A DNA stretch of 64,000 bases, taken from NCBI GenBank assembly GCA_040954595.2, contig CM082584.2:12933166-12997165 (forward strand). The letters run 5' to 3'. The translations under genes were made by a program, and so were the position numbers. How positions within the stretch are numbered: position 1 is the stretch's first letter; the number at the start of each line of letters is the position of its first letter. The stretch comes from Balanoglossus misakiensis (Eukaryota; Animalia; Hemichordata). Under the pieces are notes generated by a model that searched no databases, was not told the DNA's origin, and worked only from the letters and a program-made list of their open reading frames with translations. This document shows, piece by piece, positions 28,401 through 57,432 of the stretch.

Positions 28401-31167
28401 CCACGGTTTATTGGTAAGAAAGCTTCCTTGCACATGCCCAGATGCCATCTGGAATTGAACAAGATGGGGGGGGGGGGGGTCAGAGAGACTGGTTTGTGTG
28501 TGTTGAAGCGAGAACAGGCTTGCTCGCTCACTCACTCACTCACTCGTTCACTCACTCTGAATTTATTGCTTTGGCCTCCCTATCACTCACACACTCACTC
28601 ATTTACTCACTTTCCTATCATGTGGTTAGTGTATCCCAGTGATTTCAGTTCCTGAGGCAGAAGAGTAAAGTTGGTTGGGAGACCGTACGGAGACAGCGTT
28701 TGTATTACTGCATGCTGTGAAAAAAACACATATTCATAATGCTCGTTATTTGAATGATGTGTCATTTTTTGTTTTAGTTAAGTAATACATTATGTTCAAT
28801 TGAGCAAAACCATGTACTAAGACACTTGCCTGCAGTCCCGTCTTAAAAGTATAATACCCAGACATCAGCGAAGCGCGGCTCCTAGAAAAAGACAGAAAGG
28901 GTATTTCATACATACGTCTGTGATGCCGTGTGTACAGCACATGAATCTAAGTTTATGCGAAATAACTGTATTGATTTGATTTGGCGAAGTAAGTTTAATA
29001 ATGATATACACCAAATGTACAAAGAAAAGAAACGTCGCCTTACGGAGTGCACATTGGATTTGAGTATGCTTGATTAAAGATCACGCCCTCAGCAGCCAGT
29101 CTGTCCATATTCGGTGTCAGCATTTCCGGATTATTGTAGCCGACGTCATACCAACCTGAAACAAAGTAGAAACACGGTTAAACCACAGGAATATTTGAAC
29201 GCAATACATACATACATACATACATACATACATACATACATACATACATACATACATACATACATACATACATACATACAGTTAGCTAAAATACCCCCCC
29301 CCCCCATACCCACCTAAATCGTCTGCCAGAAAGAATACAATGTGAGGGGGTTTTCGGGTTGTGGTTTCATTCACATTTGGACCTAAACGAAGATTGAAAG
29401 TAATGTTATATACAATTAAACTATGTTTTAAATACAGCGCATGCATGCATGCATGCATACAGTCAGTCGTTCAGAAAGGCAGACAGACAGACTAGGCACT
29501 TGGTGGTAGACAGACATTTAGACCAGCACATGCATAAATTCTCTTGCAACGCACGTATTTTGCTTTTGGAAATCATGAGAACTCTGGTGAAGTTGCCTGA
29601 AAAATACTGTTTTTAGAAATCTTCCGATTCGTCAGATAAGGACATACAAAATCTTATTGACTCACAGTTCTTGTTCTCGATGCCCGTTTTCTTGCGGAAG
29701 AAGTCGTATTTTACTTTTAAAAAAGAAATGATATTAAAACAATGAAATAATGCACGAGCACTGTGACAGTGGTTGACCAAGATACATGTGACATCTCCAT
29801 TCACACAAATTCCCAGATAAAAAAAGTCCAAAACACGTCTGTTGAAATATTAGGCTCTGATTTCCTTGATACCATATACATTTTCATAACAAGGGCGTTG
29901 AAAACATTTAATCATAATCACTTGACTTGTTCAGTGGTCCTTTGGCAGAAACTTAATATTTCTGAACATAAATCTCGGATATGCAACTTTAGTCCCCAGT
30001 GCATGACTGGCAAAACAACATAGACAAGAATGGGAGAACTCACCCAAAAGAACCACAACTACAACAACTACAACAACACAGATACCTAGAGTAACTATGA
30101 TACATGTTTTGGAGACCCTGTGGGCGGCTTTCTTCTTGTTATCGTCTAGGGCATACGTTTGTGAGCGTGCAGTCGGGTTTGGTTGTGCTGGCTTGTTTTG
30201 GGCACTTGCTACTTTGTGGTCATCGTTTTGGTAGGTTGGGTTGATGTACGTTGGTGCCTGCAAGAAATAAACGTCTCTGTTTCTTGACGATTTGTGTATT
30301 GCGCATGCAGAGGAAACCAAGGCTTATGGTTAAATTGACTTTCAAATGGCGATTTCAATTACAGTGGCCTCTATGGCACCCTATGTCCAGGTGCCCATAA
30401 ATCAACCTACATGTTTGTGCAACCTTTCTTTGTCGTCCGCCCCATTGCGAAACGTTTACGTCATACATAAAAAACGAAGTCTTAGTTTCCAAAATTATAG
30501 TCGCGCTCTCATTCTAGCAGTTGACGACCTAAATTCAACGAACTTTGAATTCCGATCACGAAACCCATTCCATTCTCATCGATTACTAGTATTTTGGGGA
30601 AAGCATTAGGCCCAGAATGATCCATATAATCTGAAAATATGAAGTCAGTGATTTTACGCAGGTAATGTTCGGGTATAAGTTTACCCCTTGGAGAATTGTT
30701 GGGCTTACATTTAGTAAACCCCACAAAATACGATAGTACGGTGTCACGTATGTCACGTAATTTAACAAGCCTGTTTCTTCAACCTTGACAACCTTTCTTT
30801 ATCATACGTCTTGACCCCTCGACCTTTGCGAACTGTTTGCTTCGTGAATAGTTTGTTTTCCTCAACGAAACGCCATAAAGTATAGCTCACGCTTCGTTTT
30901 CCTTTTTTTTCTTCTAAATCTCTTTCTGTTCTCGGGGAAGAAAGGTCGAGTTATTCGAATTCAACAAATGTATACGAAGTATTGGAATAGAAAGGGTTCG
31001 ACAATATTTTAGTACATGTGCAATCCCATGCAGCACTCTGAGTCTACAACTGTGATCTTGGTTTTAGGAACAAATTACGTCATTCCTGGTCAAGGGTTGA
31101 TTTTGTCGCTAACTTATTTTACTCCTAAAGGGAAAAATCTTACCTCTACATTGCATTCAGTCGCCAT
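25483..31167 (-). CDS. Arylsulfatase B-like sulfatase, copy 1 (predicted type II membrane anchor)
   Basis: MATECNVE|APTYINPTY...hydrophobic helix...[51 protein letters not shown], ending GVYRTDFC*. The junctions I checked are in phase. Confidence 0.92.
28527..28610. repeat. Imperfect (CACT)n microsatellite
   Basis: Intronic repeated CTCA units. Confidence 0.7.
29205..29280. repeat. (TACA)n microsatellite
   Basis: About 19 perfect units, intronic. Confidence 0.95.
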
Positions 31168-31766: not shown

Positions 31767-34409
31767 TTAGCAGAATCCTGTCCTCCATATACCGCCAGTT
31801 TTTGAAGGATCGGCTGACAAGTCTGGTGGTGGGTGCATCGCGGGAACTGCTCGACTGCGGCGATAGTTCAGTCGCGCCTGCAGCTCGGCCACTATCTCCG
31901 GCTCACTATCTGCCAGATTATGACTCTCGGTTGGATCATCTGTTGAAAAGATAACGTGAATATTTCAGTTTGCATACTGAAAGTCTCAGCTGACACGAAA
32001 AAGGTGCGAAGAAATGCTGAATTTACCTTTTAGATTGAATAAATACAAGACATCCGCCGCTGGTGGTGGTTCCTCGTCTGAATCACCGATCCATCCTGGA
32101 GGAACCACTGTCTGGTTGTCTTCAGTCGGTGGGAAATACCATCCGTCTGCAAAAGAGCGAAATGTCATATGTGAACACAATAGTAGTTAAAAGTAACCCA
32201 AATGACGATGGGTGGTTGGTTGGTTGGTCAGTCGGTTGGTTGGTTGGTTGGTTGGTTGGTCAAGTGGTTGGTTGGTTGTTTTTGTTTAAAGATAGAAAAA
32301 AAAAACGGATTTTAGCGCATATTTGTACATTGTACCTTGAGCGTACACGTAGGGGTAGAACATCTGGTGATTGCCTTCGATGAGCTTCCAATCCCCAACC
32401 CTGAAATTTGATAAAATAGTACATACATTTATCTATGAGATCAGCAATATGACGTATTTATAGCCTTGGCGTATAAAGTGATTCGTGAACAATAAGACTG
32501 GAATGGGGGCAAGTGCATTGTATTGTTCTGAGGTTCAACCACTACATCATGTCCTTGGCGAGATGTTGCCTTGCCAACAACAATGGCTTCTTGAGTTCTG
32601 TCTGTCAGTTCTGACTTTCTGTTGACCCGATATCTCAAGAGCACCTTATCAGATTTTAATCAAATTTGGTACACAGGTTCTATTTTAAGTGGCAAATTGT
32701 GACTAGTTTTTTGGCGGGTGAAGTCTGTGAATTTATGAAGCTATGAACAAAAGAAAATTTAGACAGTCGGTTCATATCAGGTTATCTAAAATGTAGTAGT
32801 TCATATACCTTATCGCCGCACCTCCAATTATTTCGTCGATGCTGTACACAATCTCGTCTCTTGGAGACATTTTCCCCTTTAATACAAAATCCCGCATGCT
32901 CATTCCATCCATATCTGGGTCTTAGATTGGGAATAATATGCAAAAAACTTTTGTTGACTGTTATGATCCTAAATTTAACGTGCGGGGTTTGATTTGAAGT
33001 ACACCGTTCCCACTTGACCAATTTTCTTCTCGTGACGTCACGTTCAAATTCTACCGTCGTTATTCTAGTAGGATTCAATACATTCATGTATATACAGATA
33101 TTTTAGAAAAATGAATTGTTGGAATACCTGGAGAACCACCAGCCATAGACACAAAAGTTGGGTACCAGTCTGTTATATGCATAAGACTGAAAGAGACAAG
33201 AGATTTAGTTTACTTCATTACATACCAACCGTATACATGTACGTGCAATTTGAAATCATGCTATAAGCACAGTCTCTCAATAGGTGCAGCGAGCTCCCTT
33301 ACTTACCCATTATTGACGTATCTCATTTTCTTAAGGGCACCCCCAGCGGCAAAAGTAACAACTCTTGTTCCACCTTCGAAAAGCGTTGCCTTGGATCCTC
33401 TCAGGGGAAAGTTGAAGCCAGCGCTTCCTGGGGTTCCACCGTTCTGGGGATAAAATAGCAGTTGACCACTCATAATTTCAATTCTCACTCTGGGTCATGT
33501 TGTGTAGCTTTCATATCAGGGATGTATTGTTGTCCCTTATGTAGAGGGAGGGGGGGGGGGGGCTACCGTATATTAAACATCAATTTGATAATATATGGCG
33601 GTTACTTACGTCACTCATGAAGACAAAAAGTGTGTTCTCCCACATTCCTTTCTCCATTAGCTTGTTGGTCAAATTTCCAATAATCTCGTCCATCATGGAT
33701 ACCATACCTACATGCAGACAAAAAGGAATGATAATATCAACTATACAGGCATAAAGAGGCTGGTTGCTTCTGATTAGAATTACGTACAAATATAGGCCTC
33801 ATGGTATTCGCGCAACATCTTACCATTGTAAATTTTCCTGTCTCTATTTTTGTGGTTAGGATACAAGTTTTCGTATTCTTCGGGCACCTGTAAACAATCA
33901 CAAACATTAACCGAGTTAGTTGAACTTGCGCCTGAATTCAAAGTCTGTATGCCTTCCGCGAATCAACAGGATGGGTGTCATCATCCGGGTATTTTCCCAG
34001 CATGCATTTGCCAAGATGGCTGCAAAGGGGTTTGTTCATTTTGCCCTGATATGCTATTTTTCTATGCGCCAATTTCACAGACGCGTGCATTGCACATCAG
34101 CATTTTGCCTCAGAAGTGAGGACGACTTAAGTAAGAACCAATGCAATGTGGTTTTAGGTTTGTAAGAACTTTCCCTTTAAACGCAAACCAGTGTCGTGAA
34201 TGCCGGGTCCTTGATTACACATAGGCCTATAGATACTTACGGTCAGAAAGAAATGAGGTAGTGGTGAAGCGAAGTAGAGAAACATTGGTGTATCTTTGTT
34301 GTGTTTTTCGATCAATTCTTCTGCTTTATTGTTCAGTAAATACTGCAACAGAATCATGGGAAAATATGCATTCAAATAACATCGGCGGTGGTGGTGGTGA
34401 TGGTGATGG

Positions 34410-34455
<46 letters not shown>

Positions 34456-37400
34456 TGATACTTTCAAGTTTAGTTTATCACACCTGGCGCACCCTGGGTA
34501 AATAAATCAGAAAGAAAACAATAGGTAACACTTACGCTAATATACGTAGTATTATCAAGTATCATTCCAGTGTTATCCCAGAAATCATATGCACTGAAAT
34601 TACCGGCCTCTGCAAAAAGGTTTTTCTATCATTAGAGTTAATCACCAGATACACTTTCAGAGAATACAGCAGACTTATAACTGTCATTCTCATATTTATC
34701 AAATTGTAATTCCCTCTGATCATAAGAATTTAATTTCAACTAACTCAAATAATCATAGACCGATGCGTTTTCATTATATCACGTGACGTTACCTCCCCCA
34801 AGGGCTTCCTGAAAAAATCCCTGTGCATCCTGGTTCGTGTGGTCGTAATATTCAATGAAGTTGTTCAGATAACCATAGAACGAGTCGAAGCCACGATTGA
34901 AAGGGAGATAATCTTCCTTACACATTCCCAAGTGCCACCTAATGATGAAACGGGGTGATTTTGTGACATAGGCTGTGGCAGTGTAATTTAAATATAATGT
35001 GGCGAGTCTGGATACGTGTTTGTTGAAATTGGACAGATACTTACTTTCCTATCATATGAGTAGAGTATCCCAGAGGTTTGAGTGCTTTGGGCAAAATAGT
35101 CAAGTTGGTTGGCAGACCATATGGAGATAGTTGTTGTAATACATGGTGCTGTCAAAGAAGACAGTCAAGGTCTGTTAGGGATTGCATTCAAATTTCTACT
35201 CTTCCTTCTGAATACAAATGCAATGTAACGTATCCATGACGTCAAATTTTTCGTCAACATTTTTTGCGCTGAAATTATTCCATTTAGCTGTATGTATTTC
35301 CAATGGGGACACGCATCAGAGTAAAATTAATAGTTCATATTCTGAGATACCCATCACTTTACAATGTTTGGAGGATTAGAAAAAAGTGAGATGCAAATTC
35401 GCTCACCTGCATTCCTGTATTAAAGGAATAATACCCGCTCATCAGAGCGGAACGAGCCCTACAGAAGAAAAAAAAATAAAAATGAGCGGTTCCCAAGAAT
35501 GAAACCAAACCAATCAAGAAAAGTTAATAAAACTGAACATGAATATAACATGATTTACTGGAAGTAAATGTTCGCCTTACGGAGAACAGGACGGATGACT
35601 GTACGTTTGATTGAAGATGACGCCCTCGGTGGCTAATCTGTCCATATTCGGTGTTAACATTTCTGGATTGTGGTAACCGACGTCATGCCAACCTGAAAAC
35701 AATGTATTCCTGAATTTGACACGCTTCTCAGGATATCACTTGTTCGGTTTCATTGCAATTTTTTGGACTAAGGTGTGCTGCTGACCCCTTGGGTGATCTA
35801 ACTAAAAGTCAGATTTGCCTAAATTGTGACAGAATCAATGCCTTTCAATGCTTACTCACCCAAATCGTCCGCCAGGAAGAATACAATATGAGGGGGCTTC
35901 TGTGCCTCTGGTGCACACTCATTTTGATCTATAAATGGATGGAGAAAAGTCATTGTTATTCAGTGTTATGAGGGTATATTAATTATTTGTGCAATTGATC
36001 TTGAATAAGATACAAAAGTGGCGATAATAATCAAATTTTATTTTACTAACAAGATAATACTTTCGGAAGTCGATTCGATTCCTGAAGGAACTTGGATGTG
36101 CGGATGGTAAATTGCAATTTCACTTACACTCATCAGGATCTGTCTTGTTGGAGGAATTACCTCTCACTGAAAGTGAATACAAACAAGCGTCGTAATATAT
36201 GACACAATCGATTTAATTTGCTGTCAGTATAACACATAACCAGAGAAAACAAATGATACTTGTCCGCGGACAGGGTGACTCATGCGGCAAGAGTCATTAA
36301 CGAAGACTTACCGAGTAGAACCACTGCTAATGCAACTACACATGCAAAGAGACCAAAGATTACAATGCCAACGACCAAGATTTTTCGGAAAGTGAAGACG
36401 TAGGTCTTCTCCTTGTCGACATCGCTGTGGCTTTGACCCTTCACCGCCCAGTCGCCGTCGTTTCCAAATTTTACAGCTGCGGATTTTTGTTGATCCTTCT
36501 GTCGTAGCTCGTCCGCTTCATAAGCGATGTTGGTGAACGCGGAGAGCTGAAAGAAATTAAAGTTCGTTGAGGTTGTTTGAGTGTACAGATGTTGACGTCG
36601 AGAAGTGTCAGGGCCTTGTCGCATATTCGACAATGCAAAGATCGGGAAAACATATTTGTCAAAAACCTGACATGACGTATACATACAAATTTAGGAACAG
36701 CACTGTTCTCTTTATACCTTGTTCCGTCTGCCCGGAATTGTATCAAGCTACTGACTTCAACTTTCTTCCAAGGCCAGGTTTATAAATAGGTGAAATAAGT
36801 AGGCTATATGTAGATGGCTTAGATTTCAATCTAACTATAAAGATGGCACTCCTGATAAGAATCCCACTAACTGTTGATGGTCAATATAAAACCTTCTTGT
36901 CTCCGAGTCTTCAGTTCATTTTGATTTAGAATATATTTTGACCACATTACAATAGACTGATAACTATCTTATTGGTGACAAGATGCGTGAACTGTTAACA
37001 GTTTTGACGGTCAGAGAACTCCGAAGTTATCTGATCGCAAGCCACTCTAGTTTGATTTATTAGTTTGATATATAGCCACCTGTATTGTGTGGCTGTCGCC
37101 GATCAGTGACAAGAACCAGTTGTTTACTGCCCTATCTTGTTGTTGGTGTTTTCACGTGACCACTTAACTGTTGAACACCGCGTGACAGACAAAATATGCA
37201 GATATACTGATAAGATATCGTCTGATAACATTGTTGATTTAACATCAACAAGTGCGAGTAAGTGATAACTGAGGCCAATTTGAGTTCAAGACACTGAACT
37301 GTGTCGCGAGTGAGTGTACTTAGGTATAGGAGAGGTGAATACTTTCCACAGTCGGTCTTCTTTGTATGTGTACTAGCTGCCATTTTGCCTGTACTTTTGG

Positions 37401-38081: not shown

Positions 38082-41000
38082 TCAACAAAAGCCTGTCCTC
38101 CAGATTCCGCCGGTCAGATCGGGATCAGCTCCAAAATTCGGAGGTGGGTGAAGTTCGGGAACTCCGCGGTTGCGATGATAGTTCAGACGGGCCATCAGCT
38201 CAGCTACTTTCTCTGGTTCCTCAGCCGATAGATCGTGATGTTCATTCGGATCATCTGTATACGTTGAAAGGGGTGGAATAAGATTGTGTTAATTCGTAGA
38301 CTATAAACTATTACACACTTAAAGACGTTTAACACAATTGTACGCATACTAGCAAATTGTCCATTGCGGCATAAAAGACATTCTGCAACTTTACCTCTAA
38401 GGTTGAATAGATACAGAACATCTGGCATTGGCGGGGGGTCTTGACCGACACCTGGAACAAAAATTGGCGGCACAACCGTCTCGTTCTCTCCAGTGGGTGG
38501 CAGAAACCAACCATCTAAAACGTGAAATATGACGTAACGTTGTCATAGTTACCAATATTTATAATAGCGGTCATATTATTATACCTTTAATTTTAAGAAA
38601 AGAGATAAGTGTGTACTGTTTGATGATTCAGAGTTCTGTACGAGGACCCTAGATACCAATTGTTAACATTACCTTGGCCATATACATAGGGATAAACAGC
38701 GTGATGATTTCCATCTATAAGTTTCCAATCACCAACTCTGGAATTCAAACAAAGTACATGTATGTACATGTAATTGACAGAAATGTATGGATTTTGTCTC
38801 TCTCATTAAATGGTGCACACAGCGTGTATGTTCCATAAAAAGGTTTCCTAATTATGTAAATTTATAGATACCTTATTGCCGCGCCTCTAGTGGGCATTTC
38901 GGTCATAATATTGTAGACTATTTCGTCTCTGGGAGATTTCCTTCCCTTTGATATAGTATCCCATAAATTCTTTCCGTCCATATTCTGGTCTGTAATTGGT
39001 AAAAATCACAGACAAAAACGACGCCATTTGTACAGCATCGAATGAAACCTGTCATTGGCTACATCTCAACTTGTCATGGTAACTGTATCCAAATTTGCAT
39101 ATGTGTATATGGTCATTTTCGCTTCCAACTGGGCTGATTTTAGCATACTAAGAAACAAATGAACTTATCTTACAGAGTGGAGCAAAATAATTGACGACCA
39201 ACTATACCTGGAGTACCACCGGCCAAAGAAACAAACGTTGGATACCAATCTGTTATGTGGATAAGACTGTAACAGACACAGACGCCCCATTTGATCATAA
39301 GGTATGTAATTTTATGTTTCTTTAATATATTGAGTAAACAGAAAACAGTCGAGTGTTCAAAATGAAATGTTAACAATTCTCACTGACCCATCATAGACGT
39401 AGCCTGTCTTCTCAAGCGCGCCTCCAGCGGCAAACGTAATAACCCTTGTACCTCCTTCAAACAGTGTTGTCTTGGCACCTCGCAAAGGGTAGTTATAACC
39501 ACCATAAGTAGGACCACCGCCATTCTGAAAATAACTTGAGATGGTGATTCTGTATTCTGTAAGCCTTCTATGCGAGAACAGCACAAACAGAAATATCAAA
39601 ACTTTACTACAAGGCATTTACTCACGTCGCTCATGAACACAAAGAGAGTGTTTTCCCACATTCCGTTTTCTTTAAGTTTATTTGTTACATTGCCAATGAT
39701 CTCATCCATCATGGACACCATACCTAGATAGGAAGGAACAATACTCCAGAAATATATATGTGCTCCTCCGTCATTTGCGCGCACACTCACACATACACAC
39801 GGATGCTATATCACAGGCAGACGGACACATCAGTATAGGTCTGTTTCTACTCTCTGCAAGAAACCATGCATGTGTACAAAACAGCACAAAATTTGAATAT
39901 GCCCTTTATTTGGACACGCTCCTACCGCTGTATATTCTTCTATCCCTGTTTCTGTTGTCAGCATAAAGGTTTTCGTACTCGTCTGGTACCTGCAAAAAAC
40001 GTAAACTCATTTGAAGCCAATGTTTATTAATTTGACTGATGTTCGAATGTGATTATAGTTGCATATTTATTCAGAAGTACAACCAAGGATTGCGTTGATC
40101 AAGACTTACTTCTAATAAGAAATGAGGCAGAGGGGAAGCATAGTATAGAAACATCGGCGTGTCTTTGTTGTGTTTGTCAATCAATTCTTCGGCTCTCTTG
40201 CTCAACAAGTACTGCAAACATAAACAACGAGCAACATATAAATCTATCGTTCTATCAAAATCAAGATTGTGCAAGAAACAAGTATGGAATGTTACTTTCT
40301 TGAATTCTCAGTGCACAGATGATGGGCTATGCATGAGAAACTATATTTCTACAGCAAATGTGACTTGCGCACAGAGCCACAAAATACACGTATACAAGTA
40401 TATTTGAGGGAGTACATAGGACATTGAAATGTAAAACTCACGCTGATGTGTGTAGTATTGTCGAGTACCATGCCGATATTATCCCAGAAATCATAGCCAC
40501 TATAAGGTTTAGAGCCTGCAAGTAAGAGTAGGTGTTAGGTTAAAAGGGTATGTATACATGTACTTTGGCCTATGTCAGGACATGTACATGTGCTTCAGTG
40601 CCGTCTCTACTGAAATTTTTTTCTTACTTTCTCCTCATTTTTTATTTGTGTAATTTTGACACTTCTTGTTTCTCTAGAAGATCACCTTTAACCATAACTG
40701 GGCGTGTATATGTAATTGTATTCCAAAACTATCTTACCCTCTCCAAAAAGTCCGATGGCGTCTTGGTTTGTATGGTCATAGTATCTAATGTAGTTGTTCA
40801 GAAAACCGTAGTACGAGTCAAAACCACGATAAAATGGTAAATAGGCTTCCTTGCACATTCCTAAATGCCACCTAAAAATTTCATAAACAGGAGACGCTTG
40901 AATAAATGCATGTACATTTGTCTGTCACCGCCCTGTAGCGGCCAATCGGTAGGTCACCATCAACTTTGGTGCTGGAAGGCACCCCATGACGGTGAACAAT

Positions 41001-43096
41001 TGAACATAGCTTCCCGGGGATGTAAATGTCACATTTAACTAACATACTTACTTTCCTATCATGTGAGTATTGTAGCCCAGTGGTTTGAGTGCCTGTGGCA
41101 GAAGAGTCAAGTCGGTAGAGAGACCGTAGGGAGATAACGGTTGAATGACGTGGTGCTAAGGAATAAGCAAATTAAATGTCTTTACGGCTTTCATATTTTC
41201 GGTGCTCTTGTGAAATGAAAATGACAGAAATTGTGTGTGAATAACATGAATACCTCATCATTATGTAAACATTGCCTGGCAGAAAAGTACACTCGGGTTC
41301 GTATAAGTTTTAGTGTGCATCTCCGGCCCTTTGCGCTATCACTATCTTTACCTGCAATCCTGTTCTGAATGGATAATACCCACTCATCAGAGATGAACGA
41401 CTCCTAAAAAGCGAAAGAAATCAAATCAACTCCCATTTGCCAGGTGCGAAATACTTAATTAGCAGTCTGTTACACTGAAATTTACAAAACAAAACCGATT
41501 TCAAGAAATGTTGCCGCGCGTTCATGAAAAGAGGCCAACAGTGGCCAATTTCTAAAAAGTCACGCGCCAACTTCACACATCGAAGCAGCAAAAATGCCTC
41601 CATTTAATTGAAAAGATCATGTGTTTCATTGAAAGAAACCGATATCTGTAGAAATGAACCACTGTTTAGGTCAGTACGTTTCGTCTTACGGAGAACACTG
41701 CGGTTGAGCGTATGCTTGACTGAAGATGACGCCCTCTGAGGCGAGTCTGTCCATGTTCGGTGTACACATTTCTGGATTATGGTAACCGACGTCGTACCAA
41801 CCTGAAATGAAGAAAGCAAGGAAGTGCATGTTCTTAATGATGAGCATATTTGTTGTTGTTGTTGTTGTTGTTGTTGTTTGTAATCAGATTTACAAAACGA
41901 CCGATCAGTCAAGCAATGGCAAAATGACTGGAACTGACCTCGAAATCCAATCGAGGAATAATGCAATATTTTAACTTTATCTTTATTTATATTTTGGTTA
42001 AATTTTATTACGTACTCACCTAAATCATCCGCCAGGAAAAATATAATATGAGGTGGTTTCCGTGCTGGAGTTCCACATCCACTTTGACCTTAAAGAGTAT
42101 CAAAAAATTTGAATTCAAGAAATTTGTCATCATGGTCCGAACAAGCAGATCAAGCCTTCTAGCGTGCGGTCAGAATAGAAATTAAAAGAAATTGTTTGTT
42201 GCCATTAGCGTTTAAAGCAATGAACAATAACATCTTACGTATCAGAACCGCTACCATGACAACTACGGCGGAAAAGAGACAGAAGAATAGGGTAGCGAAA
42301 AAGCAGGTTTGCCGGGATGTGTAGACAGACACTTTCCCTTCAGCACCCTCGGTACTTTTCTGCCTGGTGGATTGGCTTTGGTCTTTTTTCTCTCCGTCTC
42401 CTCCACTGCAGGATTTTGACAACGAGGGTTTAAGATGTACATTCTCTTTTGGTTCTGTGCCTCCCTCATCGTATGCGGGCGACTGAAAGAAATTGAATTT
42501 TACTGATCAGTGGTTATGCCACTGTGAACTTTGTTCGACCTCAGTCAGTCACACCCGCGTTAAGGAGTCGGTACTAGAGGTACATGTCCTTGAGAACTGG
42601 TTATAACTGAGGGTGACTGTAGTCGTATATCACTGAGTTGTAAGTGATAAATAAACGATGAATGACAATGGGGCTTACAGACATAGTTATGGTATTTTGT
42701 CTGCGCTTATCGCTGTTTTTGTTGTGGCAGTCGCAGCGCCGAATTGGACCACTTTTCACGTGTTAGGCTAACCTCATGACCTTGACATACTGCGTCGAGT
42801 GTACGTACGCCTGAAGTCGCCGGGGGAAATGTGGTCTTGCATTGCATTGGAAGCAATCAGAAAGGTGTCAGGTGAATAATAACAGGGTTCTAATGAAAAT
42901 ATCACAAAACGTGCGCGAATATATTAGCGCAGCTGACCACCATCTTAGTCTGTACTAGAGCTGTCAGAGAGACCAAGAGAAAAATGTGCACAGAAACATG
43001 CGTGAAAGTAACGTTATACCGAACCTGTGAACAAAAAAGCTAACTTAGGAAACCAAAAAATTTGCTTCATACCTGCGGAATACCTTGAGTCGCCAT
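38082..43096 (-). CDS. Arylsulfatase B-like sulfatase, copy 3 (predicted type II membrane anchor)
   Basis: MATQGIPQ|SPAYDE...[23 protein letters not shown]...[41 protein letters not shown], ending GIWRTGFC*. Confidence 0.92.
41850..41878. repeat. (TGT)n microsatellite
   Basis: Intronic trinucleotide run. Confidence 0.85.
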
Positions 43097-44226: not shown

Positions 44227-47200
44227 TTAGCAAAAACCTGTCCTCCAGATGCCGTCCGTTAGAGCGGGATCCGCTGCAAAGTTAGGAGGTGGATGAAGTG
44301 CGGGAACTGCGCGGCTACGTTGATAGTTTAGGCGTGCCTGTAGCTCAGCTACTTTCTCCGTCTCGTTTGCCGATAGATCGTGATGCTCATTCGGATCATC
44401 TGTTCAAAATTCATACATAATATTAGGTTCATTTAGTTTCAACAAGAAAGCTTAAAACAGCCAAACAGACTTTCACAGACTTTCAATCAGACTTTGATAG
44501 ACTTTCAAATGATGTGTCAAATCAAGTATATTCTGGTTGCACAAAATGTGCCATTTCCAAATGAACTAAATGAAATTCTGGCGAGAATAGTTCATGCTGA
44601 CAAAAGAAATGATCAACGTTGTTTACCTTTCAAGTTGAATAGATACAAAACGTCTGGCCTCGGTGGAGGGACCAGACCGGGCAGTGGAATGAAAATCGGG
44701 GAAACAACAGTCTGGTTAGGTTCAGTCGGTGGGAGATACCAGCCCTCTGGGGGGAAAATAAGAAGAACATTTGACATTAGATAATTTTGAAGTCGCCTTT
44801 TGATGCGTTTCTAGGTTTTGGTACCAGTTTGAAACATTCTACTGAACGTTTTCGTAACAGCAAACACAAGCGTTCCACCAAAAAAACCCTAACCCAATCT
44901 ATTAGTTACATCGGCTTAGATACGTCAGAACTACGCACGAGTCTTTAAATATTGCCTTTTATAGGACTTGTCTGTAGTCTTTGTGAAAAGGAAAAGTTCT
45001 GACAATCCTACCTTCATCGTATACTATTGGATAAAACATCTGGTGATTTCCTTCTATAAGTTTCCAATCACCGACCCTGAAATCAAAACGCACGTTATCA
45101 ATATACAAAACACCCTTGCATGAGATGAATAGTTTAAACATGGTAGGAATACGTCATCTTGAAAATATGTCCACAACGTGATTTTTATCACTCAACTAGG
45201 TAGTCAAACCGATTTAAGGTATTGTACATGATGTTTTACCTTATTGCCGCACCTCTTTCAGGCATAATTTCATCGATGTTGTAGATTATTTCATCCCTGG
45301 GAGACACTGCTCCGTCTAATACAACTTCCTTCATATTTATTCCGTCCAAATCTGGTTCTGTGGGTTGGGATGAGAAGAGTAAGTTGAAGACATGTTTACG
45401 AACAACAGTTAACCTTCTGGGTTATCTGTTAAACTGTGAGAAGATTTTTACTTGTACGTCAATCTGATTCAAATCGACTTTAGAGAAAGGCTTTGAGCAC
45501 AGATTGGTTGTTATCATTCTGTTTCGTCAGCCATTACTCACGTGAGAATAATTATTTGCATATCAAAAATAGTAATTACGACATGTTTGATCAAGAAAAG
45601 TAAACAACGGACTGTCCGTTTACCTGGAGTACCGCCGGCCATGGAGACAAAGGTGGGAAACCAGTCTGTCATATGCATAAGACTGAAACAGAAATCAAAG
45701 TCGACATAATTAGTTCCTTGCTCGATTTCTTGTTGACATGGAAACACTACCAAAATCTGCATCACAATCACCGAAAAGCGCCCTCACTTACCCGTCGTTA
45801 GTGTAGCCCGTTTTTTCGAGCACGCCACCAGCGGCGAATGTAACAACCCTTGCTCCTCCGTCGAACAAAGTGGCTTTAGCGCCTCGCAGGGGGTAATTAA
45901 AACCTCCCCAGCCGGGAGTACCACCATTCTGAAATACAGAAATTTGACATGGAGCTTATAGTATAAACTATATCTCTATTCCTTGTTTTAATGCTAATGC
46001 ATCGAAAATACATTGTTGTAAATATTGTTCTATACTTACGTCACTCATGAAGACAAAAAGTGTGTTCTCCCACATTTCTTTCTCTTTTAGTTTGTTTGTC
46101 AAATTTCCAATAATCTCATCCATCATGGATACCATACCTATGTAGATGGAAAGAAATCAGGTTGCATATCATATTGAATCTATCCCAACAGACAGACAGA
46201 CAGACAGACACTGCTTTCGTTTCCTTGCCCAGTGTAACATATATATGGACGCTGAGACTTTATGCACATCAAGACAACTCACCATTATAAATTCTTCTAT
46301 CGCTGTTCCTATGGTCAGGATATAGGTTTTCGTATTCTTCTGGTACCTTGGAGAGAGATATCAACAAATTGTAACCAATTGTAGTTTTAGATATAATTGT
46401 TGGACGTGCTTTAGGATTGGCGGCGACAAACTCTTGCGTCAAAACATATTTTGCAAAAGAATGAGACTTACTTCCAGGAAGAAATGGGGCAGTGGTGAAG
46501 AGTAATAGAGAAACATCGGCGTGTCTTTGTTGTGTTTGTCAATCAATTCTTCGGCTCTCTTGCTCAGCAAGTACTGAATCATAAATAAGGAGAAACATAC
46601 TTTAGTCTATCAAAATCAAGATTGTGCTAAAAAGATCACATTCCAGATGAAAATAAAATCACAATAGGTAACACTCACGCTGATGTAGGTAGATTTATCC
46701 AGTACCGAACCAGTGTTATCCCAGAAATCATAGCCACTAAACACTCCAAAAGCTAAAGAAAAATATTCAAAAAATATTCAATATTAGCTACAGTCTTGTA
46801 GGGCACTGTACAGGTGCATCCCTTCAGATACTTTCCTGTACCTGTAATCTCTGTCTATCTCTACATTTGTTGATGAGACAACAATCTGTTTTCTGTGAAC
46901 ACTTTATTTCCCGGATTATAAGTTTTAAATGTTGAATGCGACGTTTATCGTACTATTAAGTTGCAAATGCATTTGTTGAGAGTGGTGCGTCAATATAAAT
47001 GACACAGACATGCTTACCGGTTCCAAGTAATTCCTGGAGAACACCGCGTATGTCCTGGTTCGTGTGTTCGTACCACTCAATGTAATTGTTCAGAAAACCA
47101 TAGAAAGAGTCAAAACCACGGTTTAAAGGAAGAAACTCTTCTTTGCACATTCCCAAGTGCCATCTGAAATTTGAATAGAACAATTGCGTGGACACTTTTA

Positions 47201-50200
47201 ATTCGTAATTCACTTTCTAGTACATTGCATTCTCCAGACCAAGGGTTTATTATTTGCGAGTTATTTGAGTCCATTAATAGCGACCTCTAGAGTTCCACTT
47301 ACTTTCCTATCATGTGAGTCGTGTATCCAAGTGGTTTGAGCGCCTGCGGCAGAAGAGTGAAGTTTGTTGGGAGACCATAGGGAGCAAGCTGTTGCAGTAC
47401 TCTGTGCTGTGGAACAAAATGAATGAAACATTAATGTGGAAAGCATGAAATTTATTTTTTCGGTTTACCTTTGTCAGACTTCGGCAGTTTTGGGGTGTCG
47501 CTCGCTGCGTTCTGCTTGTAGCCTGTATAGTAACGCATCATTGGAAAGGTAAATAACTACTACATGTAGTCCTGGTGACTTTCTTACCTGCATTCCCGTT
47601 CTGAATGAGTAAACGCCACTAAGCAGCGCCGAACGACTCCTGCAAAACAATCGACGGTAAAAATGACAAAAATGAATACTCTGATATATGTGTTTGAGGC
47701 GTGCTGTTTTTCCATAATTTTGTTATATAAATGTCACTGACGAGAAGGGATATTTATCAAATATCACATTTGTTTAGTTCGTCATCACTACTATTACGGG
47801 AATCGGTGCAAGCGACAAGTCACAAATTTTCGTCTTACGGCGAACAGGTCGGATGAGTGTATGTTTGATTGAAGGTGACGCCCTCGGCGGCCAGTCGGTC
47901 CATATTCGGTGTCAGCATTTCCGGATTATTGTAGCCGACGTCATACCAACCTGAAACAAAGCAGAAACACGATCAGACCAGGCTTAAACGAGCAAGGTCC
48001 ATCACAACGGCATCATTCCAATGGAAATTACTGACTAGATAAACGTACCCTTTTCATCGCCTACTTACCTAAATCGTCCGCAAGAAAGAACACAATATGC
48101 GGTGGTTGTGTCTTTTCTTCAGTTTTACACTGATTTGGACCTTAAGTGAAAAGAAAATATTTTTGTTATTGTTATGTTGCATTTTGTTGTCTTATCTGTT
48201 AAGTGTATTGACAAAGAAGAGCTCGGTGGTCATATATGTAGATGGGAAACCGAGAGAAGTAGCAAAATAATTGATAATTGATAGATCTCTTATGATCTCA
48301 CTCACAAAATCCGTCAATTTCGTTTTATTTATAAGACCTGTAATAAAACTGACTGTTTGGTAAATATTCCTCACTTACAGTTCCCATGATCAACGGTCGC
48401 CTTCTTTCCGAATGAGTCGCAGCCCACTGAAATGTAAAACATAAAAAAAGAATATAAATTTCAGCTGGTATTCTGACATGTACATGTAAGACACGCACGC
48501 ACGCACGCACACACACGCGCTCGCGGAATGTGATTCGCGAAGGTAAACCTCCATCTCTGAATCATATCTTATTGACATGAGAGATTTAGCAACTGCATGG
48601 TGGCTGTTTCGAAGGACGTTCTAAACATTCTTCTGTGTTGTGATATGATATCACATATTTCTTTGATAAAAAATAACTTGATGTTTGTTTGTTTGTATTC
48701 ACAATGAAATCGATAGGAAACCAACCATCATCAATGCTAAACTCAAGACGAGGCCAACACTCGACCAGTGCGTGATGGTACCAGGATGTGACCACTAATA
48801 AACAAGGTTTCAAACGCCCCTTTGAAATGGTGAGTTAAATACTTTAATACTTTATCATATAAAGCAACAAACATTTCTCTTTGAAATGTTTTTATACTAT
48901 CATACACCGAGTGTACTGTACGAATTGCCCCCCCCCCCACCCCCACCCAATAAAAAAATATATTGAGAGGATATGAATTGAATTTCAATATGAGGTTTTT
49001 ATCCTTGTATTAATGCCCGGATGCTGTTATAACACGTAACCATGAAAACATGGTTGCTGACATTCAGACTAGATTGAAGAACGATGGTGAGGTCACAAAT
49101 AAACAACTAAACACAAACAAACTTATCGATTGAGATGACCTTGTCCTCAGATTGTAAGTAAAACCAATGACATGACAAGAATAATAATGCGACTGGGAGA
49201 AAAAATGGATAATTAGTCAATTTGATGATTTCTCGTGAACACAACATGACTTACCCATGAGAACCACTGCTAATGCAACTATGATAGCGTAGACACCGAA
49301 GATTAAAGTAACTATGAGACAGTTCTTCTGAGATGTATAGATGAATTTCTTTCTTTTATCGACCGGGGAATATTCCTGCTTGTCAGACTGGCTGCGACTG
49401 TTTGCCATGTTGTCGGCGCCGTTTTTAGTTTTTGCCGTTGGTTCGGATTGGCCGTTTGGTGTACTTTCCGCAGCTGGTTCCTCGCCTTCGTACGCGGGAT
49501 TCACAAATGCAGGTGCCTGAAGTAAAATAATAACAAATGATATTAACTTTATGGAATGTGTATGTTATCTGAAAGTTACCGGCAAATAGCTGTTCGATGT
49601 TCTAATCGCATTGTCGGTTCAACACAAGGTTGACAAGGATGTAGATTAGAGGTTTCGTCACGTCATTCGGGGTCGAATTTGAATCGAATCACGATGTTTT
49701 TTATCGAAAAAAAATACGAGTCTTTCTGCAAGTGGTTACTGTCTAGGTTTAAGAAATTTTAAAGTCAAACATTTTTTTTTCGATATGGCCAATCTGTTCA
49801 ATTTGCCTTGGTCGACCATCGCAGCTAGTACAGGCTAATGTCAAAAAAATGTATTGTACTATAAATGCAAAATTCCTCTTTACATTAATTCACCTCGAAC
49901 TCTAGCAATGGAGAATGATACGTTTTCTTGAAATTCGAGCCCTTACCAAAGAAAAAGAAGCGAAACGATGTATTTTAAAATGAGATATTGGCCATCGTCA
50001 ATTTTACCTTTTACACCGCGCTCCTACTTACTGTTTCCTTGTCTGTGAAGTGATGAGACCTTTTGGGCAAACTATGATGATGACTTCAGACACAATGCAG
50101 AGAAACCGTCACCCAAGCGATTTTGTGCGGGTCGTACTGTCGTCAAACAAGTCCGAGGCAAGTGATGTACGAGCAACGGCGCCAATACCGATACAGATCA

Positions 50201-52000: not shown

Positions 52001-55000
52001 TCAGCATCTCCCGGGAACCCAAACACCACTGCTATAAGAATTCCGAAGATCTTCAGCAGTTGCCATAGAAATTGCTTCTTTCACATGGTCTATCCTCGAT
52101 ACGAGTTTTCCATGAAGTTCTTTAACTTTCTCTGGGTGACTTGCTGCTAGGTTTGTTTCTTCTGATGGGTCGTCTGAAAAGAAAATAACGGGTAGATTAT
52201 TAATTACTAGGATGTTCGATAGAAGTTCAGGAAAATTTTATGAGAGCAGTCCTTTTTACATTTTTGTGTTTTCTTTATTTATCAATTACCGTGTAGGTTG
52301 CAACTTACCTGAAAGATTGTATAAATATTTGATACTGCTATCAAAATTATACGTGGTATTTTGGTTTAGCATGCTATATTCTGTGGTATCGTTAGCACCT
52401 GAGGATTGAAAACATGAAAAATGAAACTTTATTGCATATGCACTGGAACAGAATCACTTGTACATTTTGCATTGCAAAACAAAATTATTCCAGTTACAAT
52501 TCATTTGAATCTTTGCTGACATTTTGACTTTTTTTGAAACCAATCCTGACAAATAATGGAGAAAAAGTCAACAATACGGCAAATAACTAAAACGTAATAC
52601 TTCATCAACATGGTTTTAAATATTCTTACAGAGAGAGAGACAGACCTTTGTTTCCGACTTGCTTCTGCTCGGGAGAAGTAAAGTCTTTTTCGACAAGTTT
52701 GTAATCACCTTGTCTGGAAAAAAGAATTGTGTGTACACATTTGAGTATTATTACAAACTGTGCGCTTTTTAAGACAGGAAATCAGTTTATAAAAGCCATA
52801 AATTATGAAGTACTAGATATACGTCCTTGTCTGGATGCTGCTAACGATCGATTGTAAACTGTAAAATGCGTGCTGCGACGTTGAAATTGTATTCTCTTCG
52901 AGATTTGTTTGAGCACTAGTAACGTAGAGGGTGTAAATTAATCACCCACCTGATACCAGCAATACCAGAATTGTCTAATTCAATGTTGTATATAAACTCA
53001 TTCCTTGGTGAGGGTTTCCCGCCAAGAAGTGTTTCAGACATGTCCATGCCATCAAACGGATCTGCTGGAAAATATTTAAAATTGAAGCAAATTTGCCAAC
53101 GAGAGAATACATGTATAATCGGCCAAAAAACATTGCCATAATTAATTGTCTTAATACGAGAATACCTACGGGTTGACTGCGGGCCACCGGCTATGGACAC
53201 TAATGTTGGCATCCAGTCTGTGACGTGTATAAGCCTGCATCACAAAGAAGGAATCAAAATTCTTGTTAGAGACGGAATCATACAGTCATTCTGATCAAAA
53301 TCAGCTGTAGAGAATTGCCCCATCAACAATTCTAAATACTTCAAAAAAAAAAACACCGATGCATTAAAAGTTTGTTGCTTACTCGGTATTAACGTAACCA
53401 GTTTTATTCAGCAATTTGCCATACACAAAAGCTGGAACTTGAGTTTGTCTTTCGGACAGAGACCCAGGGCTGTCATTGGGCACTTTCGTATCATCCGGGT
53501 TCTTGTGGTCAACCCCATTCTGAATAAATGTAGAGAATTTACGAAACACTATTCGTTTGTAAGTTTGCAGAGGTCGGTGCATGGGTTGGTTGGTAGGTCA
53601 ACGTGCACACAACAAGACAATCAAACGAAAGACAGCACCTTGCATTACAAATCTAAAAGTTAAAAAGGAGCGCCCAAAAGTGGCAACTTGTTTTATACTC
53701 ACACTACTGGAAAATACCAATACAGTTTGTTGTAATAATCCACTGCTTTCCAGGTGTATTCTTAGGTTGCCGATCAACTCGTCGACTGCTTGATGCATAT
53801 CCTGAAAACGATCGGGGATCTGCAACGAGGAAAGGAACTCTACATGAAAAATTCGCCATTTTATCGAGGAAAACAATTCGTGAATTTCATTCAATCGTAT
53901 CTAAGCTTTCATCTGTTGAGTCTAATAGCAAGTCTTTATCGAGGTTGGTTAGTTGGTTGTTTGGTTGGTTGGTTCACTTGGTAGATCGATCGGTCAGTCG
54001 GTAAATTGATTATTGGATGTATGCACTTACTCCTTGAGAGGACAACATGCTATCGATGCTTAGCAATAGAAACATCGAGTTTTGAGGATTTGTAGTGGCA
54101 ATTAAGTGTGCTATCCTTTTCTCAAATAAATCCTGTAAGTATAACACAAGAAGGAAAATTACTTTGGAGTATAACTATCAAGCCACTTGGTGGCGCTCTA
54201 ATTTCAAGCGAAAAACTATCGATAGTTCGCCGCACAAAGCAGTTCAGCTGCAGTTTACTTACAAATAGAAACGTGTTGTTCTCATAGCTGACTACTCCAG
54301 TGTTGTCATAGAGATTTATGCCTTCCAATCCTAAAATGTGAACGGAAATGACAGACCAATAAAGCAATTTAATCACTTTATAGTCATGAAGTTAAAGAGA
54401 ATATGTTTGAACAATGTCACCTGTAGGCTAGAAAAAAGCAATTTTACTGGAGTCTCATAAAAGCGTCAACTTCAAGTTAATCTTACAAGATTTGATGAAA
54501 GCGATATCTTAATATCCGAATATCTTAATTCCGAATATCGACGATTCAAGGTTGGATTAAACGAATGAACTAAACTGGTAATGGAAGCCATATTCAGTCA
54601 CAAATTTCAAAGGTTATGAGGAACTGGTATTGATTATTAACACATCAAAGTACTTCATACTGACCTGTGACAGGATCTTTGTACGAATGAGTCAGAGGCG
54701 ATATATCGTTCATATAGTACCCGTAAAACGAATCAAATCCTCGATATAGCGGCGTGTCGCCCACGTCACACAGTCCTATATCCCATCTGTGAAATGGAAA
54801 TTGGACAGAAAAGGTCGCCAAACTCGTAAATTATCACTATGAGGCCCCAACACGATTATTCAACAACAAGTACTGGTTATTCCTGCGTGAAGCCGAATTT
54901 TCCGTAAAAAATACTCAATCTCATCTTGATGGTTGTTAGATATTGTTTGCAGTTTGTTTTTAAGCGGTTTTGTTCAGTTGTGTAGATAGTTCTTGAGTTG

Positions 55001-57432
55001 TGTTAAATAATTCAATGTTGACTGTACGAATAACCCGGTGATGTATTAATTTAGTATTTTGCCAATCTATTGACAAGTCACACTTGTTACATACTTGCCA
55101 ATCATATGCGTCGAATATCCCATCTGTTTGAGTCTCCGCGGAAGGAGAGTGCCGTCTTCTGGCAAACCGACGCGAGGAACGCCATTGACATAGTCTTGCT
55201 GCAAGGCGACAACAGAAAACATTTCAGCAAATGCAAATGTGACACGTTTTTAAGCAAATTATTAACAGGTTTGCATTCTGTTGCTTAAAGACTTATCAGT
55301 GAGTAAGCAGCTTAATGCAAAGATTTCTCGTAAGATTTCGGATAAAATTTATACAATTATACTTCAGTTTTTATCTTCTCAACTTTTGGCAAAAAAATCG
55401 TTGCATATTACAAAGTCATACTTCATATGCGTTTGTAGGGTCATATATGAATGTTGGGTCAAAATGTGCATTGAAAGTGAATCTTTCTGACCTGAAAGCC
55501 AAGCTTGTATGGATAACGACCAGTCAGCAAGGCTGCTCTTGATCTGGAAAAAAATGTCACAAGGCAAAAGCAAACATCATCATGTGACCTTACAGCGATG
55601 TCTGATATTCACAAACAATTGTCAGGTAAAATAAAACAATTTGCTGCTGGACCCGGATATCATCTAACCAAAGAAAGTTATTTCAAACACAGAGAGGGTG
55701 TTTGTATGCGGGGCCTCAGTGATCGATTATGTAACGCATCTCCATTCATTGATGATACCTGAACATGAATGGAAGACGAGGTCAGTTAGGGATTATGATT
55801 ATAATTTAATAACAATGGTTACATGTCAAAAAATATTTGCCCATTGTATTGCAACTTTGTTGAAATCGTGTGAAACTTACGCTGTAGCCGATGATTGGGC
55901 GTAATAATTATTTAAGATGATTCCCTCCGAAGCAAGTGAATTCAGAGTGGGCGTTTTCAATTCTGAATTATTCCAGCCAACTTCGTTTGAGCCTGAAATA
56001 AAATCAAGAACGAGTACAAATAATATAATCTTGGATTGCTGAAGAATATTTGTAATGAAAGGCTCGCTGAGACAACTGTACTCAGTCTTTCTCGACAAAG
56101 TGGCCTTACCTAGGTTGTCGACAAGAATGAATACGATATGTGGTCGTTTGTCTTCTAGACTTGTCGCGCTACTGAAATCCTTGCAGTCCGTTTTCTTCTT
56201 TTCTGAGGTGACTGGAAGAAACATAAATATTTTGATTTCACATCGTCTTGGTAGCCATATAGGGATGAGGATCATCGTCATCATCATTATTATTATCACC
56301 ATCATCATTGTCGTCGTCGTAATCACTACGTTCGTCACCACCACCACCACCACCACCATAGATATTTTATATAAATATACGAACTTGGGGAGAACATAAA
56401 CTATCACGCCCACCATTATATTAGTGGTCGTGTTCTCGAGCAGAAATCTAAGGACAGAACACTCGCAACTATGACAACGACTACCTTGGGTTCCCGATAA
56501 GCAGAGATAAGTTGCGCACGCAAAACCAGTTGCAGATATCAGCCTTTCGATATAGGTACTTGACTTTTGATCCCCGATGAGTTTAACCCCATTGTTCCCA
56601 CACTCACATACTTGTAAAACATGAAAACATCATTCGTGTTTCGTGGCAGAGAGGCGCAAATACTATATAGGTGTAAATAGCGCATTCATAAATTTTCAGA
56701 ACTGGTAACACCTTGCAATAGAAGATATCAAAATATCGCACAGGCCGTTCAGTCATGCGGACGGGCCCGGGCGGGGAAATCATCTTACCGTTCAGCATAA
56801 GTGCCAATATCAATATTAAAGACACGACAGTAAATGAGGCAGTGACGGCATAAAGTCTGTATTTGTTGAGATCTTTTTCATCGGCAACGACCAGCTTGCC
56901 ATCTTTCTCCGGTTCATAACTCACTTCGATGCGATTCTCGCCACCATTCTGATCGCATTCTTCAATTTTCAGAGCGTCCTATAGCCAGGAAGTTAAAAAC
57001 AAAACCCATTAATTTAGCAAACAGGCACCTAATTTGCCGCCTAATTTCATTTCCATAATTATCAGACACCATATAACGAAGGTTACGTACGTTACATATT
57101 AACTTCACTCCATGTAATTTTACATGCCGGCTTGCCGGGATCAAACAAAGTGAAAAACAATTCTGTTTGATGTGATAAATCGATAGTTCACGAAATATCA
57201 GCATCAATGCTTCCTGTCGCGTGTGTCTTCCCAGGAAATAATGGTGTTATTGTAATAATAATACAGATTTAGGCTTTTTCTCTTTTAAAGCGTGCACTCG
57301 TGGCCGCGCGCGCGTTTCGAAGGGAAAAGAACGACGACGCGCGCGCGACGGGACGCGGACGAGGAATTAAAACAGTAAATCTTTTTCGCTTACCTCCCTT
57401 AGACAGCCATTTGTAGCGGAATTCGGTTCCAT
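52001..57432 (-). CDS. Divergent arylsulfatase-like protein, copy 5, predicted catalytically inactive
   Basis: 16 in-phase exons with no stop: MEPNSATNGCLRE|...LYAVTASFTVVSLILILALML...RPHIVFILVDNLG...YYAQSSATASRAALLTGRYP...GKWDIG...RGFDSFYG...FSSSNG...HVTDWMPTL...PSPRNEFIYNI...YLYNLSDDPSEETNLA...GVWVPGRC*. Confidence 0.88.

Follow-up and report, generated by a model that had tools for sequence, protein, structure and literature searches.

The sulfatases nearest to the gene described here are human arylsulfatase B (ARSB; Protein Data Bank, PDB, 1fsu) and the ARSB/ARSI/ARSJ-like enzymes of the S1 class, as judged by the sequence and predicted fold of its ortholog in Ptychodera flava. The gene, copy 5 of an array of five sulfatase genes, lies in a stretch of 64,000 nucleotides from the acorn worm Balanoglossus misakiensis (GenBank assembly GCA_040954595.2, contig CM082584.2, positions 12,933,166 to 12,997,165), which we call the window and whose first letter is position 1. 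In ARSB, Asp53, Asp54, Asp300 and Asn301 bind the metal, the formylglycine at position 91 is bound by Arg95, Lys145 and His147, and the sulfate is bound by His242 and Lys318 (PMC4014121; this and the other articles given by PMC number are cited from excerpts), and Pro93 has been placed in the pocket (PMC6282714). Across 4058 aligned sequences, the nucleophile position is Cys or Ser, within the signature [CS]-x-[PA]-x-R (PMC5066984). Compared with the ARSB-like enzymes, copy 5 has no Cys or Ser at this position, lacks Asp54, Asp300, His147, His242 and Lys318, and possesses a predicted N-terminal anchor. The engineered arylsulfatase A (ARSA) variants C69A and C69S (PDB 1e2s, 1e1z) likewise have a sulfatase fold without the formylglycine precursor, but these are single engineered changes that leave the metal and sulfate ligands in place, whereas copy 5 is natural and has lost such ligands as well. 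A sea urchin arylsulfatase is, by the title of a 2009 study by Mitsunaga-Nakatsubo et al. (cited in PMC13199485), reportedly a component of the extracellular matrix, which suggests a structural role of an ambulacrarian protein with the sulfatase fold; this protein is said to be catalytically competent, whereas copy 5 has lost the site and is predicted to be anchored. In the acorn worm Schizocardium, an arylsulfatase is reported to mark secretory cells (PMC13554239). Heparanase 2 (HPSE2) provides an analogy to what we propose for copy 5, as an inactive paralog that selection has maintained beside an enzyme acting on glycans; it is reported to bind heparan sulfate and to inhibit HPSE1 (PMC12406646). 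It differs in its unrelated fold, and copy 5 is without the sulfate-binding residues.

Full-length orthologs in P. flava and Glandiceps talaboti share the losses of copy 5, the losses cluster at catalytic positions, and the fold is predicted to be kept in the ortholog; we therefore read the gene as an old, selected pseudo-sulfatase and not as a decaying pseudogene, in agreement with what the earlier note had proposed from the DNA. That the non-catalytic state has been selected appears highly probable to us; the fuller reading, in which a predicted membrane-tethered protein also has a binding role, we regard as reasonably probable. In our literature search, which covered subscription journals thinly, no natural, conserved catalytically dead animal S1 sulfatase was described. 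Pseudoenzymes themselves are known in many families, and what is new here are the orthologs with the same losses in two acorn-worm families.

Gene model and active site of copy 5

Copy 5, ARSB-like by sequence, consists of 16 coding exons on the minus strand (57432-52001), which were assembled by coordinates into 1656 nucleotides encoding 551 residues and the stop. All 15 introns are GT-AG and no stop or frameshift occurs across the 551 codons, so that the uninterrupted frame with canonical splicing, as first noticed, stands. The intron phases are those of copy 4, with one intron missing, and six exon lengths are identical; the exon model is therefore not a forced one. Mean splice scores are 6.7 bits for donors and 10.0 bits for acceptors, compared with 7.4-8.8 and 7.8-9.0 in copies 1-4. 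The marks of an unprocessed pseudogene (stops, frameshifts, broken splice sites) are absent, and one in-frame deletion of 15 codons is present. An alternative exon that could supply C-x-P-x-R, a possibility raised in the earlier note, is not found, as the exon-4 search gave exactly five matches in the window, one per copy, and no second, Cys-bearing exon in the copy 5 locus. The gene and its exons are as follows:

52001..57432, minus: pseudo-sulfatase gene (copy 5), 16 coding exons, 551 residues; from the exon model and the orthologs
57394..57432, minus: exon 1, start codon and predicted cytosolic tail; its last residues match the N-terminus of the P. flava ortholog
56789..56978, minus: exon 2, tail plus a helix predicted as type II signal anchor (residues 57-75, approximately; the ortholog model has a helix at 53-82)
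56110..56211, minus: exon 3, with the stem and the first metal motif, in which Asp53 is retained and Asp54 replaced by Asn (codon 56116-56114)
55881..55992, minus: exon 4; formylglycine Cys replaced by Ala (codon 55888-55886), Pro93 replaced by Ala, its codon split by the intron
55492..55543, minus: exon 5; Arg95 and the LLTGR segment kept
55095..55198, minus: exon 6, as far as Lys145, which is kept
54665..54786, minus: exon 7; His147 replaced by Asp (codon 54782-54780), RGFDSFYG kept
54263..54330, minus: exon 8; from the exon model
54031..54132, minus: exon 9, the His242 segment, without histidine
53703..53819, minus: exon 10, paralog exons 10 and 11 fused, 15 codons missing in frame; Asp300 replaced by Ser
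53383..53519, minus: exon 11; Asn301 kept, Lys318 loop remodelled
53170..53234, minus: exon 12; HVTDWMPT kept
52950..53064, minus: exon 13; from the exon model
52646..52713, minus: exon 14; from the exon model
52309..52398, minus: exon 15, C-terminal loop, variable
52001..52173, minus: exon 16, C-terminal helix and clade-specific end with terminal Cys, stop

The active site was scored on 11 residues in human ARSB numbering (D53, D54, C91, P93, R95, K145, H147, H242, D300, N301, K318). Copy 5 keeps four of them (Asp53, Arg95, Lys145, Asn301), and lost are the formylglycine Cys, Pro93, two metal (calcium) ligands, His147 and both sulfate-binding residues. Every motif change named in the earlier note is present on the minus strand, that is, VDN for ADD, A-T-A-S-R for C-x-P-x-R across the intron 55880-55544, GKWDIG, SIDSMLSS (a segment without any His), SSNG and PGSLSERQ. 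Its statement that nearly every catalytic position is changed went too far: the nucleophile, half of the metal site and both sulfate-binding residues are indeed lost, but the total is only 7/11.

Among the orthologs, 4/11 sites are kept in P. flava and 3/11 in G. talaboti. Copy 5 and P. flava have Ala at the nucleophile position and G. talaboti has Gly, and the required Cys or Ser is present in none. Two of the four metal ligands are kept in copy 5 and in P. flava, and one in G. talaboti; in this order of species, the Asp54 position is Asn, Asn and Gly, and the Asp300 position Ser, Asn and Thr. The formylglycine-binding residues Arg95 and Lys145 are retained and His147 is replaced by Asp in all three, so that Asp53, Arg95, Lys145 and the new Asp at 147 are invariant among them. 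His242 and Lys318 are gone from all three, the exact replacement of Lys318 being uncertain, as it lies in a poorly aligned loop modelled at low confidence. An Ala at the nucleophile position cannot be converted to formylglycine, and by sequence copy 5 departs from the S1 formylglycine sulfatases in each of their sets of catalytic residues. A neighbouring Ser/Thr was considered as a substitute nucleophile and rejected, as it lies one residue away from the nucleophile and the Cys of active copies has similar neighbours.

We suggest that the old pocket is metal-free, with Asp53, Arg95, Lys145 and the new Asp at 147 pairing up in the metal's place, and that the old sulfate subsite has likely been neutralised. 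With neither the metal site nor the two sulfate-binding residues left, and with Asp in the place of His147, the trapping of a sulfate ester seems less likely, and the ligand would more likely be a protein, or a glycan bound outside the sulfate subsite.

Orthologs, fold and selection

A first word-based search with the exon 3-4 frame returned no homolog at E 0.001 among 288 candidates. The G. talaboti ortholog was found via a HMMER search with the same frame, at rank 92 of the 150 proteins listed, and was then rescored against the full model, and the P. flava ortholog was found by searching with the G. talaboti protein. The P. flava ortholog (XP_070562844) shares 60.7% identity with copy 5, and the correspondence extends to the first exon, the tail and the anchor; the G. 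talaboti ortholog (XP_077981527) is 46% identical over 454 residues; conversely, the best exon matches to the P. flava protein in the whole genome, by identity, are those of copy 5. The hosts belong to the Ptychoderidae (P. flava) and the Spengelidae (G. talaboti). RefSeq lists two isoforms per ortholog (XP_070562843.1 and XP_070562844.1; XP_077981526.1 and XP_077981527.1), one pair differing exactly at the exon 9/10 junction, and paired RefSeq isoforms usually reflect transcript data. Their names, 'arylsulfatase B-like / J-like', do not reflect the lost active site. The shorter G. talaboti isoform (P0092 compared with P0151) starts past the anchor, and an unanchored form is thus annotated.

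All three proteins lack Asp54, Asp300 and Lys318 and have Ala or Gly in place of the Cys; they also share Pro93 to Ala, His147 to Asp and a His-free 242 segment, together with the predicted anchor (absent from the shorter G. talaboti isoform) and the C-terminal ending. An alignment of 80 rows contained these three and 77 others (database matches of 400-800 residues and copies 1-4); the Cys is kept in 76 of the 77, and the 77th is truncated at that position. Once the 11 catalytic columns and the truncated row had been taken out, a quick tree of 79 rows (support by the Shimodaira-Hasegawa-like approximate likelihood ratio test, SH-aLRT, no bootstrap) unites copy 5, P. flava and G. talaboti in one clade (SH-aLRT 100), in which copy 5 and P. 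flava are sisters; by this similarity, the worm that carries the window is likely nearer to Ptychodera. Copies 1-4 group in a clade of their own, and a 92% group joins both clades and two other acorn-worm type II sulfatases. Ptychoderids and spengelids are sister groups, for which more than 370 million years are quoted (PMC11175523); since the figure of 373 million years belongs to the deeper harrimaniid-ptychoderid split (PMC4729200), 370 million years is best taken as an upper guide for the dead clade. We propose that the dead lineage goes back to a duplication in the membrane-anchored ARSB-like clade from which copies 1-4 also derive, and that catalysis was lost once, before the ptychoderids and spengelids separated.

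The protein folded was the P. flava ortholog, with an alignment of 42 sequences, and the fold of copy 5 is taken from it. The model has a predicted local distance difference test score (pLDDT) of 78.9 and a predicted template modelling score (pTM) of 0.75; residues 53-82 form a helix, and confidence is low for the tail, the stem, the old Lys318 loop (361-376) and 474-512. Its top fold match is human ARSB 1fsu (E 1.4e-46, TM score 0.84 of the target), which is also the best match to the ortholog by sequence among solved structures (E 2.6e-71), and the Pfam profile PF00884 is matched with 139 bits by the P. flava ortholog and with 127 bits by the other one (cut-off 25). The ARSB fold is thus predicted to be kept in the ortholog. 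Descent from the sulfatase fold is indicated by these profile matches and the model, and for copy 5 itself by alignment. With catalytic residues lost and the fold predicted, on the ortholog, to be kept, copy 5 would be a pseudoenzyme in the usual sense, and a type II membrane topology is predicted for it.

The distribution of the losses indicates selection. Near-invariant columns were defined by a conservation of at least 90% across 69 active references; of the 55 non-catalytic and 11 catalytic ones, 42 and 4 are kept in copy 5, 45 and 4 in P. flava, and 46 and 3 in G. talaboti, which bears out the earlier claim that loss is concentrated in the active site; Fisher p is 0.014 for copy 5, 0.004 for P. 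flava and 0.0004 for G. talaboti, although these tests share ancestry. Of 525 columns, 195 are identical in all three proteins, and 43 of those are rare in active relatives, anchor and C-terminal positions included. When neutral decay by substitutions only was simulated to 80, 78 or 70% identity, 0/400 frames remained stop-free each time. Together with intact orthologs in two families at 61% and 46% identity, this points to purifying selection at the protein level. One could also take copy 5 for a recent array copy that is decaying as pseudogenes ordinarily do, as the genome holds at least 62 sulfatase-like exon-4 loci and has seen much recent duplication. We consider this extremely improbable: copy 5 is only 32-36% identical to copies 1-4, as opposed to 61% and 46% for the two orthologs, which are intact, carry the shared losses and already contradict decay, and the outcome of the simulations also speaks against it.

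Several observations weigh against an old, selected pseudo-sulfatase with a binding role. Between the same two genomes and by the same method, the dead pair is 62.3% identical (331/531) and the active pair 83.7% (416/497), the control being a P. flava sulfatase and the closest locus examined in the B. misakiensis genome, with a second paralog at 81.7%; the dead lineage thus evolves about 2.7 times faster, and the constraint on it is real but relaxed. Residues that are invariant specifically in the clade are not enriched near the old catalytic positions (5/50 compared with 26/404, p=0.37), and a re-selected pocket at the old site is not supported by this test. Orthologs were found in two species only: none beyond P. 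flava and G. talaboti was among the matches listed in two word-based searches (37 each, about 8000 scored), from which absence in Saccoglossus, Schizocardium or echinoderms does not follow, and a search of the ESM Atlas gave general sulfatase clusters only. An unrelated metagenomic protein of 1454 residues (P0006 / P0157, JGI/IMG) has three tandem sulfatase-like domains, two Cys-less and the third Cys-bearing; the loss there is apparently independent, and such loss is therefore not unique in nature. Finally, copy 5 alone is without 15 residues at the point where paralog exons 10 and 11 meet, a segment that both orthologs retain and that forms a loop and the first part of the helix 317-342 in the ortholog model, and this loss could destabilise the protein in B. 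misakiensis.

The lack of enrichment near the site also bears on the idea that copy 5 is a repurposed enzyme with a chemistry independent of the formylglycine or the calcium site. The invariance of Asp53, Arg95, Lys145 and the new Asp147 in all three proteins and the fold, intact by prediction, would be in line with this. We nevertheless hold it to be quite improbable, as the residues at the nucleophile position (Ala, Ala, Gly) are incapable of attack, this position being Cys or Ser in the 4058 aligned sequences (PMC5066984), as the Asp300 and Asp54 positions vary among the three, unlike a selected catalytic set, and as the new invariant residues do not gather near the site.

The deletion in exon 10 was overlooked in the earlier note, and this exon corresponds to paralog exons 10 and 11, fused with the in-frame loss of 45 nucleotides. 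A hidden exon of 45 nucleotides was sought and rejected, as the missing segment has no match within the locus. The gap may have arisen by an in-frame deletion that was tolerated and took the intron with it, or it may reflect damage to this allele or a fault in the assembly. Accordingly, the lineage could be a true pseudoenzyme while the B. misakiensis copy is an early pseudogene or an allele with damage, or is misassembled at exon 10; the deletion is unique to copy 5 and takes out a position near-invariant in active relatives, and the 42/55 near-invariant columns kept are below the 45 and 46 of the orthologs. This seems rather improbable to us, because the deletion is in frame, the 15 introns are GT-AG and the 551 codons stop-free, and the end branch of copy 5 (0.27) is about as long as that of P. 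flava (0.25).

Array neighbours and possible roles

The other four members of the array are located as follows:

44227..49516, minus: copy 4, intact active-type sulfatase with anchor exon (start-codon exon not located)
38082..42506, minus: copy 3, intact active-type sulfatase
31767..36690, minus: copy 2, intact active-type sulfatase
25483..30323, minus: copy 1, intact active-type sulfatase

The models of copies 1-4 start at exon 3, except that for copy 4 the anchor exon was included as well. Each has an open frame and 11/11 active-site residues, and they are 71-76% identical among each other. Each of the five copies has a hydrophobic signal-anchor stretch upstream, as does a Saccoglossus relative; the predicted membrane anchor is thus a trait of the clade and not peculiar to copy 5. 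An exon-4 search of the 319.5 Mb genome gave 62 matches (66 scored candidates), five of them within the window, and this number is a lower bound on the family. The Cys is present in all 57 other exon-4 loci and, with copies 1-4, in 61/61, copy 5 being the sole Cys-less locus among the 62 matched.

The arrangement raises the main rival explanation, namely that copy 5 is a dedicated regulator of active sulfatases (by heterodimer formation, as a trafficking chaperone or as a substrate competitor), in the way HPSE2 acts on HPSE1. Copy 5 and the four active paralogs, for which the same topology is predicted, are arranged head-to-tail, the 92% group of the tree holds it together with copies 1-4 and the two other acorn-worm type II sulfatases, and the heparanases provide a precedent (PMC12406646). 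However, copies 1-4 are recent and copy-3-like exons are found elsewhere, whereas copy 5 is old and single, and the adjacency is therefore explained by origin. Furthermore, human ARSB is reported to be monomeric (PMC6282714), the loss of both sulfate-binding residues weakens substrate competition, and the loss of both Cys and Pro probably weakens a function as decoy for the formylglycine-generating enzyme (motif role, PMC5066984). A partnership with copies 1-4 is thus not supported, as these paralogs appear as a separate, recently expanded clade, and we regard the regulator as unlikely.

For the preferred pseudo-sulfatase, we propose that the protein has been kept for a binding role, as a non-enzymatic module that would face the lumen or the cell exterior, in the secretory pathway or at the surface. 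A more specific version is possible but tentative: copy 5 and its orthologs may be the first pseudo-sulfatase family of natural origin in animals, in which a single-copy receptor, at the cell surface or in the endolysosomal system, would have been fixed in acorn worms for hundreds of millions of years and would bind a glycan or protein. If this were true, a sulfatase scaffold could become a receptor. The lineage across two acorn-worm families constitutes a natural experiment on non-catalytic roles of the sulfatase fold, such as have been suggested for sea urchin arylsulfatase, P. flava as a genome-sequenced model allows direct testing, and enzymatic activity is unlikely for at least four proteins that RefSeq names arylsulfatase-like; the reach is limited to hemichordates so far.

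NPxY-like motifs in cytosolic tails are possible sorting signals. The predicted tails of copies 1-4 (49516-49255, 42506-42162, 36690-36283 and 30323-29934, minus strand) begin with NPxY-like or related tyrosine motifs, and the predicted tail of copy 5 is without NPxY. Near-identical copies of exon 4 of copy 3 are present on four other contigs (L013, L032, L033, L034), indicating a recent dispersal of the array subfamily. Intron-free long sulfatase matches on small contigs (G000:C30:268-1344, C37:72088-72450, C38:99991-100350) are possibly bacterial sequence in the assembly or retrocopies. The related P. flava type II sulfatase XP_070563074 (P0216) keeps C-x-P-x-R and has neither His242 nor Lys318, so that its active site may be partly degenerate or retuned.

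Other genes of the window

The gene directly upstream of copy 5 (61249-59962, minus strand) has several exons and resembles the signal peptidase SEC11 / peptidase S26, although the Pfam match is weak (E 0.035) and falls short of the cut-off. It has one match in the genome, and no match to it was found in the PDB. The catalytic Ser and His motifs of SEC11 are SGSMEP and IVHRV, and at these positions the gene has NSGVHSV and YVQRV; it is possibly a second dead enzyme. Further exons in the window were assigned to the following genes:

14030-13458, minus: exon of a nucleotide-sugar transporter gene
3529-2849, minus: exon of an LRR1 PH-domain gene
9843-10292, plus: exon of a kelch-repeat gene

Just past the end of the window, on the minus strand (L059), there are long frames that may belong to a TGF-beta / inhibin-type precursor gene, which they resemble.

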